DNA from: an uncultured archaeon
Lineage (GTDB): Archaea; Asgardarchaeota; Heimdallarchaeia; Heimdallarchaeales; Heimdallarchaeaceae
Length of the DNA stretch: 11,304 nucleotides
NCBI GenBank assembly: GCA_964549075.1
Contig: CAZJUB010000085.1
Span: 1-11,304 of the forward strand
Reading direction: 5' to 3'
Each line of letters opens with the position of its first letter. The stretch's first letter is position 1. The position numbers and the translations under genes were made by a program. The notes beneath the pieces were generated by a model. The model saw nothing but the letters and a program-made list of their open reading frames with translations. It searched no databases and had not been told where the DNA came from. Positions 1 through 11,304 of this stretch are shown piece by piece.

Positions 1-1390
1 GGATTACAGTTGCTTTTTCTTTTCCTAAAAATTCTTCACCCATTACTGCAGGTTCGAAGAATCCAGCTTCTTTTTCTTCAGCAGTTAAGATTTCTTCAAT
101 TTTAATTGGTTTTGCTTGTTCTATTGGTTGTTCTGCTTCAACAGGTGTAGGTTGTTCAACAGGAATTTCTTCTGGTATTTTTACTTCCTCATGTGATACT
201 GTTACCGGTTCTGGTTGAACAGGTATTTCTTGAGCAACAGGTACTGGTTGAGCTACCGGATTAGCTTGTGCAACTGGGGCACTTCGTGCTGCTGGTGCAG
301 CGTCAGAAGCTGTTGATTGAGCAAATCTCAAAATTAGTTCATAAAGTAGCTCTTTTCTCTCCTCTGTTATGGGGGAAAAAGAAGTAATTAACAAGTAATT
401 TGCTTCTAAGTTAAAAATCATAGCATGGACTTTTCCAGTTGAAGAAGTCATAACTGTTCCAGTAGGATCAATTTCTCCACCATTTTCTTTAAGCTTGGTT
501 CTAAAATCATGAAGACCAATAAGATATTCCATGGAACTTTCAGCAGTTACATTAGCTTGAGAAGAAGCTCCAACAATAGGTGAGTTTGTTAATTTATCAA
601 TAAGAACTATTTCAACTATGTCGTATTCTTTCAAATCTACTTGCATACTAAGTTTTCCAAATGATGGGAGTAAAGCTTCAGGTTTCGGATTAAGAAAATC
701 ACGTAACTGTTGAACCCTCGGATCTTCTGCATGTTCCATCACATAACTTTGGAATTCTTCACTCTCTTCGACTTTTTGACCGAGATTAGAAATAAGCTCG
801 AATCTTTTGGTATTGATTCCAGCTTCTTCCATAATAGTAAAAAGCAATTCTCTTAAACTATCAGCATAATAAATGCTGGTATTTTCAAAATCAATAGTAT
901 ATTTTTCATCTGAGAACATTTCACGAATGTGTTGATGAATAACAATCATTTTTTCTGGAGTTACAAGATCGACTTTATGACATAAAACAGTTATATTACC
1001 TTCAGGATTTTCTTTCTTGTACTGGCGAATGGTAAAACTGAAACGACGTTCTGATTCTTCAAAAAGCTCAGGTTTGGTTACATCAACAATCCAAACAAGT
1101 AGTTTAACATTAGAGAACACAAGATGACGGAAATGAGTAACAGCTTCATTCCAATAACTTTCTTGTCCCCCAGAATCGATAATCATACTTGTTTGTTCCT
1201 CATCTAAGAATTGTCGTTGATAATGTACAGTAGCCATGTAATCGTCTACTTCACCTGGTTGCTTATTAAAGAAAACAACATCCTTTATAGCAGTCTTACC
1301 AGCAGCTTGAAGACCCATTAATAGTATTTTATCTTCAACAGTAGCTTTAGATTCTTCCTTTCCTGATAGCTCATCGAATAGATAGGACAT
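1..1390 (-). CDS. Rag/Gtr1-like small GTPase with probable C-terminal roadblock domain and Pro/Glu-rich extension (3' end outside the window, >=463 aa)
   Basis: Not in the ORF track. Manual translation from ATG at 1390 is open to base 1: MSYLFDELSGKEESKATVEDKILLMGLQAAGKTAIKDVVFFNKQPGEVDDYMATVHYQRQFLDEEQTSMIIDSGGQESYWNEAVTHFRHLVFSNVKLLVWIVDVTKPE...NPEGNITVLCHKVDLV...FENTSIYY. Motifs: G1 GLQAAGKT (1292-1315), G2 MAT, G3 DSGGQ (1163-1177), G4 HKVD (968-979), G5 TSIY (869-880). HKxD and TSI[WY] are Rag-family hallmarks. Residues ~250-358 (DIVEIVLIDKLTNSPIVGASS...VHAMIFNLEANYLLITSFSPITEERKELLYELILRF) have a roadblock-like strand/helix pattern. Confidence 0.9.
   Translation of the reverse strand, partial: MSYLFDELSGKEESKATVEDKILLMGLQAAGKTAIKDVVFFNKQPGEVDDYMATVHYQRQFLDEEQTSMIIDSGGQESYWNEAVTHFRHLVFSNVKLLVWIVDVTKPELFEESERRFSFTIRQYKKENPEGNITVLCHKVDLVTPEKMIVIHQHIREMFSDEKYTIDFENTSIYYADSLRELLFTIMEEAGINTKRFELISNLGQKVEESEEFQSYVMEHAEDPRVQQLRDFLNPKPEALLPSFGKLSMQVDLKEYDIVEIVLIDKLTNSPIVGASSQANVTAESSMEYLIGLHDFRTKLKENGGEIDPTGTVMTSSTGKVHAMIFNLEANYLLITSFSPITEERKELLYELILRFAQSTASDAAPAARSAPVAQANPVAQPVPVAQEIPVQPEPVTVSHEEVKIPEEIPVEQPTPVEAEQPIEQAKPIKIEEILTAEEKEAGFFEPAVMGEEFLGKEKATVI
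215..277 (-). repeat. Degenerate 18-bp coding tandem repeat (PVAQAN-PVAQPV-PVAQEI-PVQ) in the GTPase low-complexity tail
   Basis: Minus strand reads CCAGTTGCACAAGCTAAT CCGGTAGCTCAACCAGTA CCTGTTGCTCAAGAAATA CCTGTTCAA. Confidence 0.65.
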
Positions 1391-1486: not shown

Positions 1487-4400
1487 TCAATTCTTCTTTT
1501 GTTCGATTTTTTCCGCTGCAAGCATAACTTTTACTGATTTATGACGAATTATACGAAGTAATTCTTCAACCTCCTTCAACTGCTTCTTCTCTTTTAAGTA
1601 AGCTATAATTGCATCAACTTCATCATATACAAATTCTTGATTATTCAAAAGTAGATTACCGTATTCAGAATCAGCTAGAATTATTAAAGAAAGATTCTCA
1701 AATCCACCTCTTGCCATTTTGTTTGGTAATTGAATTCCATGTACAAAGCCTATCATTTTCTCTGTTGGAAGTATAATTGAACCAACTCTACGTCCCATAT
1801 CATGTTCTTCGAATCCTAATGAACTATAAGCTTGATCAGAGATTTTCAGCAGAAAATTTTCAACTCCGATTTGCATTCGACCAAGATATCTAGTTGTATC
1901 AAGTGAATGTGTTGCGATGAGAGGGATAGGACCTTTTCTTTGATCAAAGATTGTTAATATTACTCCAGGTGACAACTCCTCATATCTATCCATTATTTCT
2001 TCGACTGATATTCCCTCCATAACTTCCTCAAATGGTTTACCTCTTGTCACTTTATAAACTATCAATGAAATAATTAAAATAACAAACAGTCCGCCACCTA
2101 TCAACGTATAAAGTAACCACGATGGAAAACCAGGTGGGTAAATTTTGATTACTTTTTCATCCATCTCTGAATATGCTAAATCAAGAAAATCTCCTCCATC
2201 AAATGAAACTGAGACTAAGACATAATCTATATCTGCAGTCATAGTGAAAACTATTGTAGCTTCTCCATTAATATTGGTAGTTCTATTTAATATTACATAG
2301 GTAGTGTAGTTGCTGGGGATTGTAGCTAATACTCCCTCTGAAGTATTTTCGTATGAATATGAATAAACATAAAAGTGTAGAAGTTGTCCTGCTACACCTG
2401 TACCATTTTCAAAAGATAGAGCAGCAGTAATAGTAAATTCTGTTCCTTCTAAAACGGTAGAATTGGAAGATATTATATTAATATTAAGAAGGAGAGGAGT
2501 AACTGTGAATTCAAATGTGAAATCTCCTTCCAATATAGCATAGAAATATGTACTTTCTACATACATAATGATTGAATGATTTCCTTTTACTAAACCATGA
2601 GTAGAATAACTGAACCAATACTCAGATGTATTTTCAACATTATTAAAATTAGTAATTACAGAGTTTACTTGTCCCCACAAAATTGAAAGATTCTGGCTTA
2701 AATAATCTTTCATTTCAACATAAACAATTAAATCTTCATCATATTGAATAGAAAGATCTGTTTTCTCTAATATTTCTACTGTTCCAAGTTTCTTATCTAC
2801 TGTGAGAAAAATCTTTACTGTTTGTGAACCTCCACCAACCAGATAGAACTCAAAAAGGGCATAAGATTCAACTCCTTCAGTAATATTAGTAGCTATAATT
2901 ATACATTCATAAATGGTAGTGTCAATTTTAACCATACTCATTTCAAAATTGTAGACATCTGTTAGATTACGTAATTGCAGATCTGGAATTTCACTTCCAT
3001 CTATAGTATCTGTAACATTTACAATGAAGACAAAACTATCAGTATAATTCATTCTATGATGGTATGATAAATATCCCCCTTCTTCTGACCACATTTCAGG
3101 ATTTGGTGATGTTACCTTAACGTCGATATCATTTACAGTTATATAAAATGTATATGTTTTAGAGTTTGGTTGAGTGCTTATAGTATTATCAGTCAATGTA
3201 ACTTTTAATGTGTGACGTCCATCCTCATCAGGAACATTGTCCATAAAATTATAACCATTAATTAAAACTGCATTTAAATCTAAATAATCACTTCTTGCAT
3301 CATCATCATCCCAAATATAATAAAATAAAGCGATGTCATCATTAGTGTTGTTTTTATACAAAACAGGAGTATTACCCAAACTTGTATACTCTCCTCCATT
3401 AATGAGATTTGTATAAACGCCACTCTCATTTAAAAAAAGACCAGGAAGAGGAGCAGTTCGATCAATAATAAAATTGAAGGTTCTAGATAGAAAATTCTCA
3501 TAAATATCATATAGTTCTATAGTAATTGTAGCAGTATCTCCTGTTTGGTAAGCTCCTGGTCCATCAAAGAATAAAGAAGGGATACGCACAGAGAAACTAT
3601 CATACATATCATAAGTTGTGTAGATATAGTAAAATTCTAATTTATCATAACAATAGCGCACTGTTGTCACTGTTTCTATATTTTCTTCATCAATGAAAAA
3701 CTCCAGATCAGTGAATTTGTTTATTTCATCTAGTTCATTTGGAGAAGTGAGATCCAATTGAGGGGCAATATTATCAATAATTAAGTAAATTGAGTAGAAA
3801 CTGATATGACCTAACGAGTCGTTAGCATAAATTTTCAGAAAACCAGCACCATCTCCAGCGGAGAGTGTAATTGTTCCAGAGAAACTAGAATTACTGCCAC
3901 CAGCCCATGAATAGAAAGTATCCACAATTGGATCGCTATCTTCAACTGTAACAATAACCTCATCTCCTGTTTTAACATAATTAGTTGAAAGGTGTTCAAT
4001 GAGTTCAGGAATAGTTACTGTTTTGATTATAGGGGCTTGTGTATCAACATAGAAAACAATCGTTTGTGTAGCATAATTTCCAGCTAAATCGTAAACATAA
4101 ATAGTAAAGTTATGAGTACCATCATCAAAAATTAATAAGGATAGAGAGAAAGGATAAGTTAAGGTTTGATTAGCCTTATTATCAATTTGAATATATACAA
4201 TAAGCTGATTTACAGATGTGTAATTATCAGTAATAAGAAAGTCCATTATCTCGCTGGTTTCAAACCTTGTACCATTGTATGAAGTAAATACTGAACTATC
4301 TATTACTGGAGCTTCTAAATCAACTATAAAATTAAAATAGAAAATGTGAAGAATATTATCATAATCAAACGTTATAATTGTCAAATTATGAGGTCCTGGA

Positions 4401-6328
4401 TCTGTTGATAAAGCATCTACTCCTGATAATATGAGTTGTGAACTTATGATCGTACCTGATTTTAGGATTCCACTATCCCAGACATAATAAATAGTTCCAT
4501 TACTCTTCTGTATATTGATGACAACCTCATTTCCTCCTAAGTAATAAGAATTATTTCTTAAATCGGCTAACTCTACTAAAAACAACTCATCATCTGTGAA
4601 GAAACGGTAATTTTTCTCTGTATAAAAACCATTTACATCATACACTTTTATAACTAATGAATGATATCCTGGAGCTTCAGGTAAACTTGTTTGATAGATC
4701 GTACCTTGAGCTGGTGTCCACAATTGATCTGGGTCAGAACCCCAGCTATAATTTGCAGATTGTATTCCTACATTATCAGTTATGTTAAACTCTATCACTT
4801 TACCAGGAGCTTGATGAGTATCATTTAAAACATTGTATAATTCGATTGTAGGAGCTAAAGAATCAAAGTGAAAGATATAATTTACAGTTTCATTCGTATA
4901 GAAATCCGTAGTTTTAATTGTCAGGATATGTTCTCCATTATAGAGAGGAGCTACTATATCGTACGGACTCTCAAGCGTTGACCAAGTTCCGTTATCCCAA
5001 GTATACTCTGTGGTATCAACATAGTAGACATCAAAATCAATAGTGGTCCCACCCGTTACAGAAGAACCATTTATAAGAGGGCTATTAAGAACCACATTAA
5101 TTATAGATTTATCATAACCAAAGATATACGAAGATGTTTTTGTATTATTATATACTGGATCACTCGCTTTAACATCTAATGTATTCCAACCAGGATTATC
5201 TGGAATTGTTGTTAAAGTAGAATCGCTGAATGAAGTCCAACTTTCACTGTTCCACCTGTATGAACTAATTGAACCATCAGTGACATCTATTGTCATTGCT
5301 TGTTGACTTTGATAAACTGCATTATCCATTGCTCCGATAATATTGATATCTGGATATGCTTTGGATCGCATATACAACTGAATTCCAGACATTCTAGTAA
5401 CATTATTGATAAGATAAGTATTATCATATGCATTATTTGCATCATCTATTGTCCAGGTGGTAGATCCTCCTCCAGTATAACTATAACCTGTATAAGCCAG
5501 AAAAGAGCCTTGGGATGGAACATAACTAAAACGTGCTTCAATATCCCATCTCAATCTGTATCCAGCAGGAATTGTAACCGTTCCAGTAATATCAGCATAG
5601 GTACTCCTTTGTCCTGGCCAGATATTTGGTTCATATTGATATGAAGTTCTTCTAGCTAGAAGAGTCGGATTTAAAGGATCAGCTGGATTAAAAAGATAAA
5701 GACTCTGTCTAAAACTTATGTCAATTGACGAACTAAAAGGAGGAGCATCATTAGATTCATACCATGATAACCAATAAACTCTTCCTGTAATCTCATAATC
5801 TTCGGTAAACACTGGGCTATAAATTTTTGAAGGTTCATGAGGGCTATTTCTTTCTCTCAGATAGAACCAATCAGTGTTATTTGGCCATGTACTTGGTTCA
5901 TCACTTAATGCTCTCCAGTACATCTCTTTTCCTAGAGTTCCGTCGTCCTTTATATCATCATAAGTAACCCATTCTAAGATATTTCTTCTATCATAGGGAT
6001 CAGTTCCAGCAGGATCATTAATTAATGTATCACCTACATAAGAACTACCATAAATAAAGCCTGTTCCACCGGGGAAAAACGCTTGAGTTTTAAAATTACC
6101 TGCAATTTCTGCATTTGTTACTAGAGAACCATCACTAGGTTTTTCTGCAGATTTGATATAACCTGGAAAACTAGGAGTATCAAGGGTATTTGTTGATTCA
6201 TTCGAAGAAGCGGAAACATCATTTTTAGAACTTTCAACTTGTCTATAGGTTACTGTATTGAAACAGAGTATAATTAACATTAAACCAAAAATAACATTCA
6301 TTTGTTTTTTCATCTTCATACTCCTCAC
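1487..6328 (-). CDS. Large type I membrane protein (receptor-like): signal peptide, N-terminal jelly-roll-like domain, ~11 Ig-like repeats, TM helix, cytoplasmic folliculin/SMCR8-like longin domain (paralog B)
   Basis: 1613-aa ORF. N-terminal MKKQMNVIFGLMLIILCFNTV; repeated D..AP.i.l...Y.WD...G.H.L.I...D..N...F..D units; TM WLLYTLIGGGLFVILIISLIVY (2054-2119) followed by KVTRGK; tail with GVILTIFDQRKGPIPL and GFVHGIQLPNKMARGGFENLSLIILA. The annotated start is GTG at 6328. ATG at 6313 (7 nt after GAGGAG) is an equally plausible start. Confidence 0.9.
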   Translation of the reverse strand: MRSMKMKKQMNVIFGLMLIILCFNTVTYRQVESSKNDVSASSNESTNTLDTPSFPGYIKSAEKPSDGSLVTNAEIAGNFKTQAFFPGGTGFIYGSSYVGDTLINDPAGTDPYDRRNILEWVTYDDIKDDGTLGKEMYWRALSDEPSTWPNNTDWFYLRERNSPHEPSKIYSPVFTEDYEITGRVYWLSWYESNDAPPFSSSIDISFRQSLYLFNPADPLNPTLLARRTSYQYEPNIWPGQRSTYADITGTVTIPAGYRLRWDIEARFSYVPSQGSFLAYTGYSYTGGGSTTWTIDDANNAYDNTYLINNVTRMSGIQLYMRSKAYPDINIIGAMDNAVYQSQQAMTIDVTDGSISSYRWNSESWTSFSDSTLTTIPDNPGWNTLDVKASDPVYNNTKTSSYIFGYDKSIINVVLNSPLINGSSVTGGTTIDFDVYYVDTTEYTWDNGTWSTLESPYDIVAPLYNGEHILTIKTTDFYTNETVNYIFHFDSLAPTIELYNVLNDTHQAPGKVIEFNITDNVGIQSANYSWGSDPDQLWTPAQGTIYQTSLPEAPGYHSLVIKVYDVNGFYTEKNYRFFTDDELFLVELADLRNNSYYLGGNEVVINIQKSNGTIYYVWDSGILKSGTIISSQLILSGVDALSTDPGPHNLTIITFDYDNILHIFYFNFIVDLEAPVIDSSVFTSYNGTRFETSEIMDFLITDNYTSVNQLIVYIQIDNKANQTLTYPFSLSLLIFDDGTHNFTIYVYDLAGNYATQTIVFYVDTQAPIIKTVTIPELIEHLSTNYVKTGDEVIVTVEDSDPIVDTFYSWAGGSNSSFSGTITLSAGDGAGFLKIYANDSLGHISFYSIYLIIDNIAPQLDLTSPNELDEINKFTDLEFFIDEENIETVTTVRYCYDKLEFYYIYTTYDMYDSFSVRIPSLFFDGPGAYQTGDTATITIELYDIYENFLSRTFNFIIDRTAPLPGLFLNESGVYTNLINGGEYTSLGNTPVLYKNNTNDDIALFYYIWDDDDARSDYLDLNAVLINGYNFMDNVPDEDGRHTLKVTLTDNTISTQPNSKTYTFYITVNDIDVKVTSPNPEMWSEEGGYLSYHHRMNYTDSFVFIVNVTDTIDGSEIPDLQLRNLTDVYNFEMSMVKIDTTIYECIIIATNITEGVESYALFEFYLVGGGSQTVKIFLTVDKKLGTVEILEKTDLSIQYDEDLIVYVEMKDYLSQNLSILWGQVNSVITNFNNVENTSEYWFSYSTHGLVKGNHSIIMYVESTYFYAILEGDFTFEFTVTPLLLNINIISSNSTVLEGTEFTITAALSFENGTGVAGQLLHFYVYSYSYENTSEGVLATIPSNYTTYVILNRTTNINGEATIVFTMTADIDYVLVSVSFDGGDFLDLAYSEMDEKVIKIYPPGFPSWLLYTLIGGGLFVILIISLIVYKVTRGKPFEEVMEGISVEEIMDRYEELSPGVILTIFDQRKGPIPLIATHSLDTTRYLGRMQIGVENFLLKISDQAYSSLGFEEHDMGRRVGSIILPTEKMIGFVHGIQLPNKMARGGFENLSLIILADSEYGNLLLNNQEFVYDEVDAIIAYLKEKKQLKEVEELLRIIRHKSVKVMLAAEKIEQKKN

Positions 6329-6336
6329 TTCTCCTC
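6321..6336 (-). promoter_or_regulatory. Stop/start junction with tandem Shine-Dalgarno-like GAGGAG motifs (translational coupling)
   Basis: Minus strand ...ATA GAGGAG AAG TGA GGAGT ATG AAG ATG. The upstream stop TGA (6325-6327) overlaps GTG (6326-6328). GAGGAG occurs at 6331-6336 and 6321-6326, the latter 7 nt before ATG 6313. Confidence 0.5.
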
Positions 6337-9300
6337 TATTCCTTGTGCAGTTAACATAACTATAACTGATTTCTTTCTGATCACTTCTACAATTGTCTTG
6401 ATTTCTTCAAGACTCTTTTTTGTTCTTAAAGCTTCAACCAGATCATCTGCCTCGTCATACAAGTAATCTTGGTAATTAAGCAGATAATTACCATATTCAG
6501 AATCAGCTAACACAATTAAAGAGAGATTTTCAAATCCTCCTCTAGCTGTTTCATTTGGTAGTTGAATACCATGTACCCATCCCACCATTTGTTCACCTGG
6601 GAGAACGATAGATCCTACTCTACGACCAGTGTCATGTTCTTCAAAACCAAGAGAACTGTAAGCTTGATCTGAAATCTTTAGTAAGAAGTTTTCAACTCCC
6701 ATTCTTAACCTTCCAATATAACGACCCAGCTCCAAGCTATGATCCATCACAAGAGGGACAGGTCCTTTTCTTTGGTCAAAAATTGAGAGTATAACTCCTG
6801 GAGACATTATTGAGTAATTGAGTGCTATCTGCTCTTCAGTTATTTTCTCCATCAAATCTTTGAATGGTTTAGGTTTAACTATTTTATAGATAATTAACGA
6901 AACAATTAAACCTAAAAACAAACTACCGCCTATGATTGTGTATAATAACCATGAAGGAAGTCCAGGCGGAGTTAGAGCATAAACTGGTTCATCTAGAACA
7001 GAAGAAGATATATCATATTGATCATTTCCATCAAAGAAGACTTCTATATCGATATACTCTATTCCCTCAGACATTTGAAAAGTTGCTGTAAAGTAACCAT
7101 CAGCATCAGTAGTTACAGTGGTAGTCCAATAATCATCATAATCATCAACATTCAGAGCATATACCAATTTGTCGTTTGAGACTTGGATAATATAAACATA
7201 AATTATAATGGATTGACTTGCAAGAGGTGTACCGTCATTTGCTGTTAATATTCCTCTGATAACCACTTGAGAATCAATAAGTACTTCATAACTTGTAACT
7301 TCAACAGATATTTTAGATTGAAGTGGTAAAACCTCAACTACAAAACTGTTATTTGTCCCATAGAAGAAATAAGACTGAGCTTGAATGTTAAGAATATGAT
7401 TACCTTTACTACCTAATAATACTGAAGAATAGTTAAATTGGTATAATCCATTTCCAAGTGTAACCATCGTATTAGTAACGTTATAACCATCAACAAAAAT
7501 TGTTAAAATCGTTACATTTGAACCTATTTTATCTTCCAAAAAGATAATTATAGTAAAATTTTCTCCATAAACAACTTGATTGATACTTGATTGGTTAACT
7601 AGTAGTGTACCTTCTTTCCTATCCACTGTTAAGAAAATCTGAACTAGTTGTTTACTTTCTTCAAATTTATAGAATTGGATTTCGATTTTTGTTTCATCTG
7701 TTACATCATAAGCTGTAATCAATATTTCATAGGTTATATTATCCAGCTGTTTAATTATTTGCACTGAGATGTTTAAAGATGGATTTTCTCTATTAATTCT
7801 TGTTTGAAGCCCAATTATCTCAGTATTATTCACCGCATCTGTAACATTTAAAATAAAGCTTACACTCGCTCCATATATTAGATGAGTGGTATTTTTATAA
7901 GCATTTAAGGTTAATTCAAAATCATCATTTATGAACTTTAACTGAATATTATCAATTAGAAATGAATAAGTGTGATTTATTTCATTTTGAACATTATCTA
8001 CTAAAATAACAGTCAAAGTGTAATTACCATCAGTTCCTGGAGTTAAGAAAGTTGGATATACATCTATCAAACTGAGAGATTGTTTATTTTCTTCTGCAAC
8101 ATCTCCCCAGTAGTAGTTGAAGGTTATTAGTTCTCCCACCTCATTTGCATAAGAATTATACCTTATAGGTTGATTACTTTGAGCATAATTCGATTCAGAG
8201 ATATCTACCCATTCTTGTAATGATCCATCATAAACCTCCAAATCAATGACTGGGGGTTCATAATCTACCTTAAATTTAAACCACTCAATATGTGAGTTCC
8301 CCACTATATCCTTAACATTTACATAGAATGCTACTATATCCCCTTGTTTATAAAATGGTATAACTGTCACAGTAAAATTATGTTCTGGACTTGTGTACCA
8401 TCCTGGATATATATCCCATGAGTATTGAATTAATTCTATAGTATTATCTCCTAAAACATCTGTTGTTTCAAATTCTAAAATTGTATTGAAATTAACTTCT
8501 TCTGTAGTATTAGGCATATTAACAAGAGCTACTGAAGGGGCTTGGATATCTATAATTAATGGTTGAGGCTTAGAGGAAAGATGTAATCCATCATCAGCAT
8601 ATATAACCAATGTACCAGATTTATTTTGATAAGGAAGAACAAAACTATCTGTAAAAGTATGTTGTTCTCCGTCCCAAACATAGTATGTTATAACTCCTGA
8701 ATATTCTTCTTCAATATTCACATTTACAACTGCATTACCAGGAAGGTAATATTTTCCTTGGAGAGTTACCAAGGCTGGGATATCATACTCTATTTTAGGA
8801 GGAGTATTATCAATTGTAAATTCAATGTAAAGAATATCATAGAGCCCAGCAAGATCTATAGCATATAGATAGAGGTAATGTACACCATCGTTTGTTAGGA
8901 AATCTAAATTATAGAAATAAGAACCTGCACTTAAAGTTTCATTCACCATTCCATCAACAGAAATTAGAACTGTAAGATTTTCTCCAGATACTTCATTATC
9001 TGTAATTGTGAAATAGAATGTTGTACCAACAGAAACATATCGTCTATTATTATAATTTTCATCAGGGACAATATTCGGAGCTTCTAGATCCACAATAAAA
9101 ACGAATGCATAATTAAATTCATAACCTGTATAATTATAAGTTCTAATAGTAAGGGAATGTGTACCTGCCGATGTTGGGATACCATCTGGGTATTCTAATG
9201 TTAATGTTTGAGACGCAATAGTTCCATCTTCAAAAGCTCCACCATCCCAGCTATATTGTGCTATCCCATTGCTTTTTTGAATGGTTATATTAACTGTTTC

Positions 9301-11061
9301 ACCGCCTAAAACATAAGAATTATTTGAGAGATTTTGCAACTCAACTAAGAAGATATCGCTATCTGTGATGAAACTAAAGCTCTTATAAATTCCTTGATTA
9401 TAATTATCAAATGCATATATATGCAATACATGCACCCCATCAGAAATAGGGAGATTGGTTCTGTAAATACTCCCATACGCTGGTAGCCAAGTTAAGTTCG
9501 CATTGCTATCCCAATGATACTTTACATCTTGTATACCAGAAGAATCGGAAATTTCCACATCAATTGTTTTTTGTGGTGCATATGTTCCACCGTTGATCAC
9601 ATTATCAAGGTTCACACTAGGTGGATCCGAGTTAAAAGTAAAGAAATATCTATAAATTTCATTCATGTAAAAATCAGAGACTCGAATGGTTAAATTATGC
9701 TCTAATTCGAAGATAGGAGTTACAATATCATAGGGAGCTAAAAGTGGGAATAATGTTCCATTCTCATCCCATTCATATGTTACCGTATCAACATAATAGG
9801 CCGTAAAATTAAGTAAATCCCCCCCATTTATCGTTGATCCATTACTCGGAGGAGAATTAAGTACTAAATTAATTTCAGAAGCATCATAAATAAATTGATA
9901 AAATTCATATCGTGTATTGTTATATTCTGTGTCACTAGCTCTTATTTCCAGATAATGATAATCGTGAACAGCAGGTAAATTAGTTGTGGTAGAAGTTGAA
10001 AAACCGATCCAACTCCCATAATCCCATCTATAGGAACTTATAGAACCTGGTGTGACATCAATATTCATTTCTTGAGGAGTGTAATATACAGCATCATTTA
10101 CTGCGTTATAAAAAGTAATATCAGGAGTTTTATCCTCGAGCATATAAAGCTGCACTCCTAGCATACCATCGGTGTTAGAGACAATATATTCGTTAGTATA
10201 CACACCATCAACAATATCCCAATCAAGACCACTTCCGTAACTCAGTATATCTAAACTAAAGTGCCCTCCAGTTGCATCTACATTATCATATTTCATCATA
10301 TAAGTAATTTTAAATCGATCTCCAGCAGGCACAGTATAAGAGGAAAACGAACTACTTGTTTCAAACCATTGTCGATATTCAGTAGTAGTAGGAGTACCAG
10401 CAATTTTAGGTATTAGATATTCTACTGATGTTATCTCAGTAGAGTTTGAAGTTGCTGTTTCATAATGCCAAAGAGTTATTTTTAGAGTAGCATCCATAGC
10501 ATTAAAAACTGAATTAGAAGGATCATCATTTAAATCTCGATGCATAGTGAATATATAATGTACTTTACCTGAAATCGTTGTATCGTAAGATAGGATTGGG
10601 CTGTACATTAACGCATATCTTCCTGAACCACCATAATCTGCTCCCATCAAATAATAGACATTATTTGTGCTTGGGACAACACCATTAGCAAGATCTCCAA
10701 CTGCAAATCTTTCTTGATCTATATTTGAACCACTTGATATACTATCATAGGCGGTCCATTGATAACCCGATCCATTACCATCTAGATCTGATGTAAAGGT
10801 ATTATAACTGAAATACGCCTTTGTTTTATAATTTCCTTCTATTACTTCTGTTTTTATTTTGATTGGAGATGGATTATACGGTTGATATCCATCATAATCA
10901 TCAAAATCGTCAGAAGGCGAGTTGTCTTCTGTTCTTTGTATCGTATCTATAGGTTTAGAATTATTCTTTACAGAATTTGAAATTTCATAATATAAAACTG
11001 AATTGAAACATAATGCAATAAATACTATTGAAATTAATTTATCTAACTTTACTCCTCTCAT
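6325..11061 (-). CDS. Large type I membrane protein (receptor-like) with the same architecture, including cytoplasmic folliculin/SMCR8-like longin domain (paralog A)
   Basis: 1578-aa ORF, collinear with 1487-6328 over its whole length (e.g. GSISSYRW, FLVEL..L.NNSY.LGG..V.I.IQKSNG, FIVDLEAP). N-terminal hydrophobic LISIVFIALCFNSVLYY; TM WLLYTIIGGSLFLGLIVSLIIY (6886-6951) followed by KIVKPK; tail with GVILSIFDQRKGPVPL and GWVHGIQLPNETARGGFENLSLIVLA. Confidence 0.9.
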   Translation of the reverse strand: MRGVKLDKLISIVFIALCFNSVLYYEISNSVKNNSKPIDTIQRTEDNSPSDDFDDYDGYQPYNPSPIKIKTEVIEGNYKTKAYFSYNTFTSDLDGNGSGYQWTAYDSISSGSNIDQERFAVGDLANGVVPSTNNVYYLMGADYGGSGRYALMYSPILSYDTTISGKVHYIFTMHRDLNDDPSNSVFNAMDATLKITLWHYETATSNSTEITSVEYLIPKIAGTPTTTEYRQWFETSSSFSSYTVPAGDRFKITYMMKYDNVDATGGHFSLDILSYGSGLDWDIVDGVYTNEYIVSNTDGMLGVQLYMLEDKTPDITFYNAVNDAVYYTPQEMNIDVTPGSISSYRWDYGSWIGFSTSTTTNLPAVHDYHYLEIRASDTEYNNTRYEFYQFIYDASEINLVLNSPPSNGSTINGGDLLNFTAYYVDTVTYEWDENGTLFPLLAPYDIVTPIFELEHNLTIRVSDFYMNEIYRYFFTFNSDPPSVNLDNVINGGTYAPQKTIDVEISDSSGIQDVKYHWDSNANLTWLPAYGSIYRTNLPISDGVHVLHIYAFDNYNQGIYKSFSFITDSDIFLVELQNLSNNSYVLGGETVNITIQKSNGIAQYSWDGGAFEDGTIASQTLTLEYPDGIPTSAGTHSLTIRTYNYTGYEFNYAFVFIVDLEAPNIVPDENYNNRRYVSVGTTFYFTITDNEVSGENLTVLISVDGMVNETLSAGSYFYNLDFLTNDGVHYLYLYAIDLAGLYDILYIEFTIDNTPPKIEYDIPALVTLQGKYYLPGNAVVNVNIEEEYSGVITYYVWDGEQHTFTDSFVLPYQNKSGTLVIYADDGLHLSSKPQPLIIDIQAPSVALVNMPNTTEEVNFNTILEFETTDVLGDNTIELIQYSWDIYPGWYTSPEHNFTVTVIPFYKQGDIVAFYVNVKDIVGNSHIEWFKFKVDYEPPVIDLEVYDGSLQEWVDISESNYAQSNQPIRYNSYANEVGELITFNYYWGDVAEENKQSLSLIDVYPTFLTPGTDGNYTLTVILVDNVQNEINHTYSFLIDNIQLKFINDDFELTLNAYKNTTHLIYGASVSFILNVTDAVNNTEIIGLQTRINRENPSLNISVQIIKQLDNITYEILITAYDVTDETKIEIQFYKFEESKQLVQIFLTVDRKEGTLLVNQSSINQVVYGENFTIIIFLEDKIGSNVTILTIFVDGYNVTNTMVTLGNGLYQFNYSSVLLGSKGNHILNIQAQSYFFYGTNNSFVVEVLPLQSKISVEVTSYEVLIDSQVVIRGILTANDGTPLASQSIIIYVYIIQVSNDKLVYALNVDDYDDYWTTTVTTDADGYFTATFQMSEGIEYIDIEVFFDGNDQYDISSSVLDEPVYALTPPGLPSWLLYTIIGGSLFLGLIVSLIIYKIVKPKPFKDLMEKITEEQIALNYSIMSPGVILSIFDQRKGPVPLVMDHSLELGRYIGRLRMGVENFLLKISDQAYSSLGFEEHDTGRRVGSIVLPGEQMVGWVHGIQLPNETARGGFENLSLIVLADSEYGNYLLNYQDYLYDEADDLVEALRTKKSLEEIKTIVEVIRKKSVIVMLTAQGIEEK

Positions 11062-11072
11062 TTACTTAACCT

Positions 11073-11304
11073 TTATTCACAATTTAATTGATTATTAATT
11101 ATTTCTTTGATGTCAAATGAGTGATAAAAGCCTTCACTTATAGCTTCTTGAAACTCTTGAATACCTTCTTGTGTAACATTAGAAATCTTCACTGATATAA
11201 TTCTTTCTGGATTAATTTGCACACCTATCTTATTCAGTACATGTTGTTGGATAAATTGTTTTCCTTGTTCAACATTAGCATCTGTAACAAGAATGCTTCT
11301 TTCA
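11073..11304 (-). CDS. C-terminal 76 aa of an upstream gene (5' end outside the window), possibly a small GTPase
   Basis: Open frame from 11303: ERSILVTDANVEQGKQFIQQHVLNKIGVQINPERIISVKISNVTQEGIQEFQEAISEGFYHSFDIKEIINNQLNCE, stop TAA at 11073-11075, 11 nt before the next ATG. ISNVTQEGIQEFQEAI resembles the G5/alpha5 segment (S-A-x-T-g-e-G-i-x-e-l-f) of Ras-superfamily GTPases. Coding status is likely; the function is uncertain. Confidence 0.6.
   Translation of the reverse strand, partial: ERSILVTDANVEQGKQFIQQHVLNKIGVQINPERIISVKISNVTQEGIQEFQEAISEGFYHSFDIKEIINNQLNCE

Follow-up and report, generated by a model that had tools for sequence, protein, structure and literature searches.

We analysed the whole of contig CAZJUB010000085.1 (assembly GCA_964549075.1), hereafter the window, which is 11,304 bases long, has a GC content of about 33% and comes from a Heimdall-group genome; the named homologues of its proteins are mostly labelled "Candidatus Heimdallarchaeota/Heimdallarchaeaceae". 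The minus strand carries every real gene of the window. Two of these genes, here called paralogs A and B, encode very large surface proteins, and this work deals with the cytoplasmic tail of paralog B, which an earlier reading of the bare sequence (the original prediction) had likened to the longin domain of folliculin and SMCR8. Folliculin, GATOR1 and C9orf72-SMCR8, which are linked to cancer and neurodegeneration, are the longin-domain GTPase-activating proteins (GAPs) by which eukaryotes turn off their Rag and Arf GTPases. We describe the locus as a testable archaeal counterpart of the folliculin-Rag nutrient switch.

Paralog A (6325..11061, minus strand) is an open reading frame (ORF) for a single-pass surface protein of 1578 residues, with a signal or anchor segment, an ectodomain, a transmembrane helix assigned from hydrophobic segments (residues 1370-1392, nucleotides 6886..6954, minus strand) and a cytoplasmic longin tail (6328..6885, minus strand). 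Paralog B (1487..6328, minus strand) encodes 1613 residues when its ORF is read from the GTG at 6328. An alternative start, the ATG at 6311-6313, lies five codons on, gives 1608 residues and is the one used in databases. Our numbering counts from the GTG; from the ATG, the Arg1540 discussed below would become Arg1535. The transmembrane helix of paralog B (residues 1403-1425, nucleotides 2054..2122, minus strand) is followed by KVTRGK, in line with the positive-inside rule, and then by a cytoplasmic tail of 188 residues (1490..2053, minus strand). The tight coupling of the two genes shows in the start of paralog B, which overlaps or abuts the stop of paralog A.

Both proteins have an N-terminal hydrophobic segment, one transmembrane helix and an ectodomain of about 1340-1350 residues. 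The ectodomains of A and B are 33% identical, whereas the tails share 65%. N-x-S/T sequons occur at 2.3-2.4 per 100 residues in the ectodomains and at 0.5-1.7 in the tails (2.4 versus 0.5 in B), while lysine plus arginine account for 4-5% of the ectodomains and 11-13% of the tails (4.7% versus 13% in B). This bias in sequons and charge fits an ectodomain that is outside and a tail that is inside. Judged by these sequence features, A and B appear to be type-I single-pass surface proteins with the longin as cytoplasmic tail. Pfam matches in the ectodomain are weak (Big_13, Ig-like, E about 1e-3), and a search of the ESM Atlas with ectodomain residues 35-340 gave nothing usable.

The original prediction had tied tail B to folliculin and SMCR8 through three ordered motifs, and all three are present in the minus-strand ORF 1487-6328 at the positions where it had placed them. 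The first, GVILTIFDQRKGPIPL, is found at residues 1455-1470; only its end coordinate needed correction, as it covers nucleotides 1919-1966 and had been given as ending at 1969, a slip of 3 nucleotides. The second, ENFLLKISDQAY, corresponds to residues 1490-1501 (nucleotides 1826-1861), and the third, GFVHGIQLPNKMARGGFENLSLIILA, to residues 1527-1552 (nucleotides 1673-1750). The translation confirms that the proposed arginine finger, Arg1540, is codon 1709-1711. Within tail B, FDQRKGPIP (1922..1948, minus strand) forms the hairpin of strands 1 and 2 with a GP motif, as placed by the alignment A2 described below, and ARGG (1703..1714, minus strand) lies in the loop between strands 4 and 5 and holds the candidate arginine finger. 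Tail A shows the same invariant columns, with FDQRKGPVP at 6754-6780 and ARGG at 6535-6546 (both minus strand), where Arg1507 is codon 6541-6543.

The AlphaFold2 (AF2) model of tail B, built on a 25-row alignment, has a predicted local distance difference test score (pLDDT) of 90.8 and a predicted template modelling score (pTM) of 0.87. After two short juxtamembrane helices, the model has strands at 30-37 and 41-49, a helix at 64-79, strands at 89-95, 100-110 and 118-128, and helices at 139-154 and 159-187. This order of elements, beta-beta-alpha-beta-beta-beta-alpha-alpha, is the predicted longin topology, and the description of the tail as two juxtamembrane helices plus a longin domain draws on the model, on fold searches and on Pfam. 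R115 of the tail, which is Arg1540, falls between strands 100-110 and 118-128, so that in the model it occupies the strand 4-5 loop, as had been claimed. The claim of a stand-alone longin with no DENN module also stands, since the model stops in two helices at residue 187. Because the protein ends at the second C-terminal longin helix and has no C-terminal DENN domain, it is not a folliculin orthologue. It is an Lst7-like, longin-only, membrane-anchored variant; yeast Lst7 is likewise longin-only in the accessible text of Tang et al. 2020 (10.1101/2020.04.16.045708).

A Foldseek search with the tail B model gave the Asgard longin 8yqg at rank 1 (E 8.5e-6) and 8dhb_J, from the active FLCN GAP complex, at rank 3 (E 1.5e-3, 25% identity). 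We also compared the model with 48,161 representative chains in an unbiased structure comparison. The first rank was again an Asgard longin, 8yqg_B (Z 13.2, root-mean-square deviation (rmsd) 3.0, 143 aligned), followed by 7o2w_A of C9orf72-SMCR8 (Z 12.2, rmsd 3.1, 153 aligned), 6nzd_H (Z 11.5, rmsd 2.8 Å, 136 residues aligned, 17% identity), Lst4 (Z 11.3, and 11.3-12.0 across both structure lists) and 6lt0_B, a second C9orf72-SMCR8 chain (Z 10.2). Chain H of 6nzd is presumably folliculin, the search itself giving entry titles only. Next are the AP5 small subunit and SEAC/GATOR1 chains (Z 9.0-9.3) and the FNIP2-complex chain 6ulg_N (8.7), while the longins of SNARE, TRAPP, Mon1-Ccz1 and DENND1 score 7.3-8.5 and roadblock proteins about 6-7. 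Judged from entry titles, the top 49 rows are all longin or roadblock-superfamily chains, and a second scoring of Foldseek's own list agrees with the unbiased ranking. For the predicted structure, GAP-complex longins stand at ranks 2-5, above SNARE, TRAPP and adaptor longins (Z at most 9.3). The best structural matches of the tail are longins with the GAP class on top, and not other folds.

Alignment A2 contains 28 sequences, namely the four paralogs of the genome, close and distant receptor tails, and the N-terminal longins of fusion proteins described further on, with identities to the query that go down to 20%. The sole invariant columns (28/28) are F36, D37, G41, P44, R115 and G116. They make up one motif in the hairpin of strands 1 and 2, FD-x3-GP-x-P, and another, (A)RG(G), in the loop that joins strands 4 and 5. 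In the model, strand 2 (41-49) begins with G41-P42, and a few sequences have A in place of P42. As for the eukaryotic proteins, R147 of SMCR8 is placed in the betaL4-betaL5 loop and made equivalent to FLCN R164 in the available part of Tang et al. 2020 (10.1101/2020.04.16.045708), and a GP motif directly before strand 2, adjoining the arginine finger, is described in section 2.4 of PMC12290439. Within its accessible text, the same article lists the GP motif for FLCN, NPRL2, SMCR8 and C9orf72, and as absent from FNIP2, NPRL3 and non-GAP longins. This family has kept invariant both elements from which eukaryotic longin GAPs build their catalytic pocket. The tail, as modelled, fits the structural and motif criteria of GAP-class longins (FLCN, SMCR8, C9orf72 and NPRL2 in PMC12290439), from which we infer a GAP activity. 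The interpretation of tail B as a folliculin/SMCR8 longin is supported, with the note that motifs 1 and 2 are outside the Pfam local match given below and that their correspondence relies on the modelled fold and on how the GP motif is described in the literature.

The same domain might instead be a non-catalytic docking platform or a guanine-nucleotide exchange factor (GEF) that tethers a Rag-like dimer or another GTPase to the membrane, the arginine being kept for binding or structure. Its analogues would be the roadblock dimers of Ragulator/Ego and the longin GEFs TRAPP, Mon1-Ccz1 and DENN. Most longin and roadblock modules are indeed platforms or GEFs, eukaryotic Rag-type GTPases need a membrane anchor, and chains of TRAPP, Mon1-Ccz1, DENND1 and LAMTOR are also in our structure lists, at Z 6-8. 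Furthermore, the available part of a preprint proposes a GEF role for the Asgard FLCN-like module (Liu et al. 2020). However, GAP longins score 2-4 Z units above GEF and platform longins, the invariant residues are restricted to the GP hairpin and the ARG loop, and the reported absence of the GP motif from non-GAP longins (PMC12290439) points the same way. We consider a platform or exchange role unlikely.

In sequence searches, the Pfam family Folliculin (PF11704) matched tail B with E 1.2e-4 and 22.3 bits, where the gathering cut-off is 23.3, and it was the only longin family matched. With a score under that cut-off, the tail is not filed as a curated PF11704 member. The match spans tail residues 104-160 and profile positions 50-104; it includes motif 3 and extends from strand 4 across the arginine loop and strand 5 to the helix after it. 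Tail A gave no PF11704 match at E <= 1. A six-frame search of the whole genome returned tail B as the sole match to this family, and the control genomes returned none (0/14). When 25 family members were scanned singly, 12 matched PF11704 at E <= 0.1 and none matched other longin families, with no match to the Pfam NPR2 and C9orf72 families among the 25. A search of NCBIfam found nothing relevant. Among PDB sequences, the single tail B query had 0 matches at E <= 10 and profile A1 had 0 matches; the best match of the tail-only profile A2 was 8yqg_A, the Asgard longin, at an insignificant E of 0.2, and that protein is without the arginine. Among the nearest named clusters to the tail in the ESM Atlas are an NPR2-bearing cluster (0.86) and an LST7/Folliculin cluster (0.76), which serve as leads only.

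A Pfam score under the cut-off and the lack of a significant sequence match to solved structures would also suit a tail that has a generic longin fold and nothing else in common with the GAPs, serving sorting or contacts unrelated to GTPases as the longins of SNAREs and adaptors do. A common fold does not establish function. Such a tail is nevertheless hard to square with the invariance of the motifs, with the ranking of GAP longins, and with the conserved GTPase neighbours and the fusions reported below, and we regard this explanation as very improbable.

Searching with tail B, we found 78 proteins of 887-2823 residues at E <= 1e-3. The same threshold gave 62 cluster representatives, 29 of them at E <= 1e-10, and in the full-length representatives the longin domain is at the C-terminal end. 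The source genome has four copies of the tail, and matches are present in 98 of 400 genomes of the phylum. With the source genome excluded, genomes with a match make up 21 of 30 in its own GTDB family, 9 of 12 in family f7, 20 of 22 in f5 and 39 of 135 in f20. Some f5 genomes have eight or more matches, and the longest open frames that end in the tail in this family have about 10,000 residues. One locus (L058:1003-1521, plus strand, on G397:C13) has an ORF of 172 residues, within an open frame of 218, that is essentially the tail alone and has no Pfam match; its product may be a soluble or truncated form of the tail.

Downstream of paralog B, the first 463 codons of a Rag/Gtr-like GTPase (Rag-like GTPase 1) occupy 2..1390 on the minus strand. 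The protein matches Pfam Gtr1_RagA (PF04670) at E 5.9e-26 and 91.7 bits, the cut-off being 22. In alignment A3 it has the motifs G1 GLQAAGKT, G3 DSGGQ and G4 HKVD, the HKxD form being one that we take to be typical of Rags. Its model has a pLDDT of 68.1 overall and about 80-88 in residues 290-350, and predicts a GTPase domain plus a roadblock-like alpha-beta-beta-alpha-beta-beta-beta-alpha arrangement at 253-359. Its best Foldseek matches are RagA/RagC and Gtr1/Gtr2, with alignments of about 340 columns and E 3e-18 to 1e-14, well ahead of Arf (about 1e-8). Contig C179 shares 18 codons with the start of the window (2-55), and from this overlap Rag-like GTPase 1 is about 622 residues long, its part on C179 being L072:2127-2660 (minus strand), with a long acidic, proline-rich C-terminal extension. 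C179 also carries a convergent gene for Rag-like GTPase 2 (L072:896-2125, plus strand), which has 409 residues and matches PF04670 at E 2.1e-33. The C-terminal part of this second GTPase contains CDxCG and HEC motifs and is possibly a zinc-binding module. The spacer between paralog B and the first Rag-like gene is 96 nucleotides long (1391-1486); it begins with a T-rich run and has AT-rich, TATA-like stretches, so that the gene for Rag-like GTPase 1 may have its own promoter there.

At the other end of the window is the 3' end of a Ras-superfamily small GTPase gene (11073..11304, minus strand), read from the translation and clipped by the contig end. It comprises the last 76 codons plus the stop, and these 76 codons are the C-terminus of the GTPase encoded upstream of the receptors. 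Lastly, a plus-strand ORF of 114 residues inside gene B (5300-5644) was rejected as most likely spurious, with no support.

We counted neighbours at the best-match locus of each of 29 genomes, which cover four genera of the source family and one genus of f7. A Gtr1/RagA-like gene is next downstream on the same strand in 28 of the 29 loci, at a spacing of about 80-110 nucleotides. In 27 loci it is an orthologue of Rag-like GTPase 1, and at L044 it is a 408-residue form closer to the GTPase 2 type. A second Gtr1_RagA gene, encoding 409-416 residues, is convergent to the first in 6/6 loci with enough flank; these come from the same 29-genome set and are not independent. On one relative's contig, three receptor paralogs are in tandem ahead of the GTPase. 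Upstream, a Ras-superfamily GTPase gene of 239-243 residues directly precedes the first receptor gene in all three relatives examined (L073:2081-2812, L074:1836-2567 and L075:2095-2814), with the P-loop GDGHTGKT and Pfam Ras (PF00071) matches at E 2.4e-6 to 6.2e-5. The conserved cluster is made up of a Ras-like GTPase, the receptor or receptors, Rag-like GTPase 1 and the convergent Rag-like GTPase 2.

More distant relatives have other surroundings. The divergent f5 clade (L045-L055) has 25-30% identity and keeps the GP and ARGG motifs. Its conserved neighbours are a protein of about 1,000 residues with an N-terminal hydrophobic segment, an 82-residue cysteine-bearing protein and, further, a 134-residue protein, a small membrane protein and a class-I lysyl-tRNA synthetase. 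In another lineage, G397, one of two loci (L050, G397:C4) has a receptor-tail gene convergent with a 319-residue Gtr1_RagA GTPase, and a 222-residue Ras-family GTPase is found about 2.6 kb off, past a 260-residue ORF with no Pfam match.

The weak matches of family f20 are proteins of the Loki type, with about 450-490 residues where the frame is complete. We examined nine of them (L056, L057, L059 and L064-L069), and all nine have an N-terminal longin followed by a Gtr1_RagA domain. The Gtr1_RagA match has E 2.5e-23 to 5.6e-26, and 2.7e-9 in one copy clipped by the contig end. PF11704 is found at E <= 0.01 in seven of the nine, one of which reaches 24.0 bits, above the cut-off. The GP hairpin is present in 9/9, and both FD..GP.P and ARG(G) were seen in the three fusions that were read full-length. 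Identity between the fusion longin and the tail is 20-23%.

Two other Asgard proteins of about 355-361 residues (L060:5373-6458 and L070:470-1537, both minus strand) have a Folliculin-type longin in which the motifs GP and RGG are present. In L070 a weak DENN match comes in addition, giving the complete folliculin-like arrangement to which Liu et al. refer. A PDB sequence search with the longin+DENN protein L060 as query gave nothing relevant.

There are two independent genomic pointers to Rag-like GTPases as partners of the tail, one being the conserved gene cluster and the other the fusion in another lineage. It is on these that a different choice of target can be weighed, in which the tail would be a GAP for the upstream Ras-like GTPase, or for an Arf-related GTPase encoded elsewhere, and not for the Rag-like pair. 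The Ras-superfamily gene directly upstream of the receptors, here and in 3/3 relatives, would agree with this, as would the C9orf72-SMCR8 chains that score as high as folliculin, the f5 clade that retains the motifs with no Rag neighbour, and the 14 PF04670-type matches of the source genome. On the other hand, the fusion partner is of the Gtr1/RagA type, and not Ras or Arf, in 9/9 Loki-type proteins, and what is conserved directly downstream is a Rag-like gene (28/29 loci). A Ras-like or Arf-related target seems to us distinctly unlikely.

We favour, as the likelier explanation though with some reserve, that the tails act as an arginine-finger GAP on one Rag-like GTPase and that the ectodomain couples an external cue to it. 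In this mechanism, tails A and B would probably pair as a longin dimer on the inner face of the cell membrane, and such a pairing would be in keeping with a tandem of paralogs whose tails are 65% identical. One of the Rag-like GTPases encoded alongside would then receive Arg1540 or Arg1507 in its nucleotide pocket and hydrolyse GTP faster, in the manner of RagC/D under FLCN-FNIP and of Gtr2 under Lst7-Lst4. Binding or clustering of the ectodomain would set when the GAP meets the GTPase, so that an outside cue could reach a Rag-type switch.

Several observations weigh against a Rag-directed GAP. The PF11704 score of tail B is 1 bit short of the curated cut-off, and the PDB sequence searches gave no significant match. 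The genomes counted for the gene cluster are kin and not independent samples, and at one locus of a close relative (L026) an alpha/beta hydrolase is downstream, with no Rag-like gene next. The two other paralogs of the source genome adjoin an ABC transporter and a dehydrogenase. In the divergent f5 clade, about 6 kb on the downstream side was covered and held no Rag-like gene at 10/10 loci. The third GTPase of the cluster, which is Ras-like, could be the real target of the longin tails. Moreover, the spacer before the Rag gene is AT-rich with a T-rich start, and the gene may be transcribed separately. One complex prediction with tails A and B, the GTPase domain of Rag-like GTPase 1 and GTP gave 0.11 against a mark of 0.32; this value scores only the GTPase chain, was obtained with no controls and carries no weight in either direction.

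As for earlier literature, the accessible text of PMC12290439 (Traffic 2025) reports both the GP motif and the arginine finger in sequences from Heimdallarchaeia that carry the annotation "Folliculin/SMCR8 longin domain-containing". The core of the original prediction is therefore not new as a class. The same text asks whether Arf-related or Rag/Gtr GTPases partner with heimdallarchaeial longins and leaves their target GTPases open; our locus points to Rag-like GTPases. The main text of that article has no use of the word "transmembrane" and no gene neighbourhoods, its 15 Asgard sequences (Data S1) may include receptor tails, and Asgard entries are absent from two of its supplements. The available part of the preprint of Liu et al. 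(2020) reports fusions of Rag GTPases with longins, and also FLCN-like longin+DENN proteins that share an operon with a non-Rag GTPase; membrane-anchored forms are unmentioned in that part. Operons that join a GTPase gene to a longin or roadblock gene are the exception in Asgard archaea, according to the accessible text of Tran et al. 2024 (PMC10933270), and the partners of these GTPases are therefore difficult to predict. Our full-text literature searches gave no description of a receptor-tail longin or of a longin-Rag cluster in Asgard archaea, nor did searches turn up a paper on the PDB entries named LokiRagM and Roadblock-Longin. New, in the sense that we did not find them in print, are the receptor-tail architecture in proteins of about 1,600 residues, the conserved cluster with the Rag-like pair and the naming of the partner from the Loki fusion.

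The layout seen here, in which a GAP-type longin is fixed in place at the membrane by being the tail of a receptor, appears to be unreported. The set of proteins is small and defined, with two tails of about 185 residues and two or three GTPases, and it bears on the question of whether longin GAPs already regulated Rags before eukaryotes arose. A more far-reaching idea is that the folliculin-Rag module began as a cell-surface signalling device and not as a lysosomal nutrient sensor. In that case, a giant Heimdall-group receptor pair would carry the longin GAP on its cytoplasmic tails and directly control, at the cell membrane, the nucleotide state of a Rag-like heterodimer of its own. The release of the longin from the receptor (as Lst7/FLCN) and the transfer of the system to an internal membrane would be later, eukaryotic changes. 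We offer this as a long shot that is rather unlikely to be right.

Among known systems, FLCN-FNIP acts on RagC/D, Lst7-Lst4 on Gtr2, SMCR8-C9orf72 on Arf and Rab, and the NPRL2-NPRL3 pair of GATOR1 on RagA/B. The tail resembles folliculin-FNIP and Lst7-Lst4 in its longin fold, in the weak Pfam Folliculin match, in the GP hairpin and in the arginine of the strand 4-5 loop. Rag-type GTPases are common to both, here as genomic partners, and Lst7 is longin-only as well. In contrast to folliculin, the tail has neither a DENN domain nor the N-terminal FLCN region. Folliculin is part of a soluble complex that is recruited to lysosomes, whereas here the longin is the covalently membrane-anchored tail of a giant surface protein. 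FNIP and Lst4 are without the GP motif, while here both tandem paralogs carry the arginine.

SMCR8-C9orf72 and GATOR1 belong to the same class of GAP longin dimers, and compare with the tail model at Z 10.2-12.2 and 9.0-10.4 (GATOR1/SEAC), respectively. The tail differs from SMCR8-C9orf72 and NPRL2-NPRL3 in having no DENN domain, no NPRL2 C-terminal domain and no match to the NPR2 or C9orf72 families of Pfam. The Asgard longin-GTPase(-roadblock) fusions (Liu et al.; PMC10933270) share FD..GP.P, ARGG and a Gtr1/RagA-type GTPase with the locus, but they are one soluble chain, whereas at our locus a receptor bears the longin and the GTPases have genes of their own. Finally, MglB-MglA is similar in that a prokaryotic regulator of the roadblock/longin superfamily is encoded beside its GTPase; MglB, however, is a soluble roadblock domain (Z 6.9 against the tail model) and does not belong to the GP/arginine class of longins.

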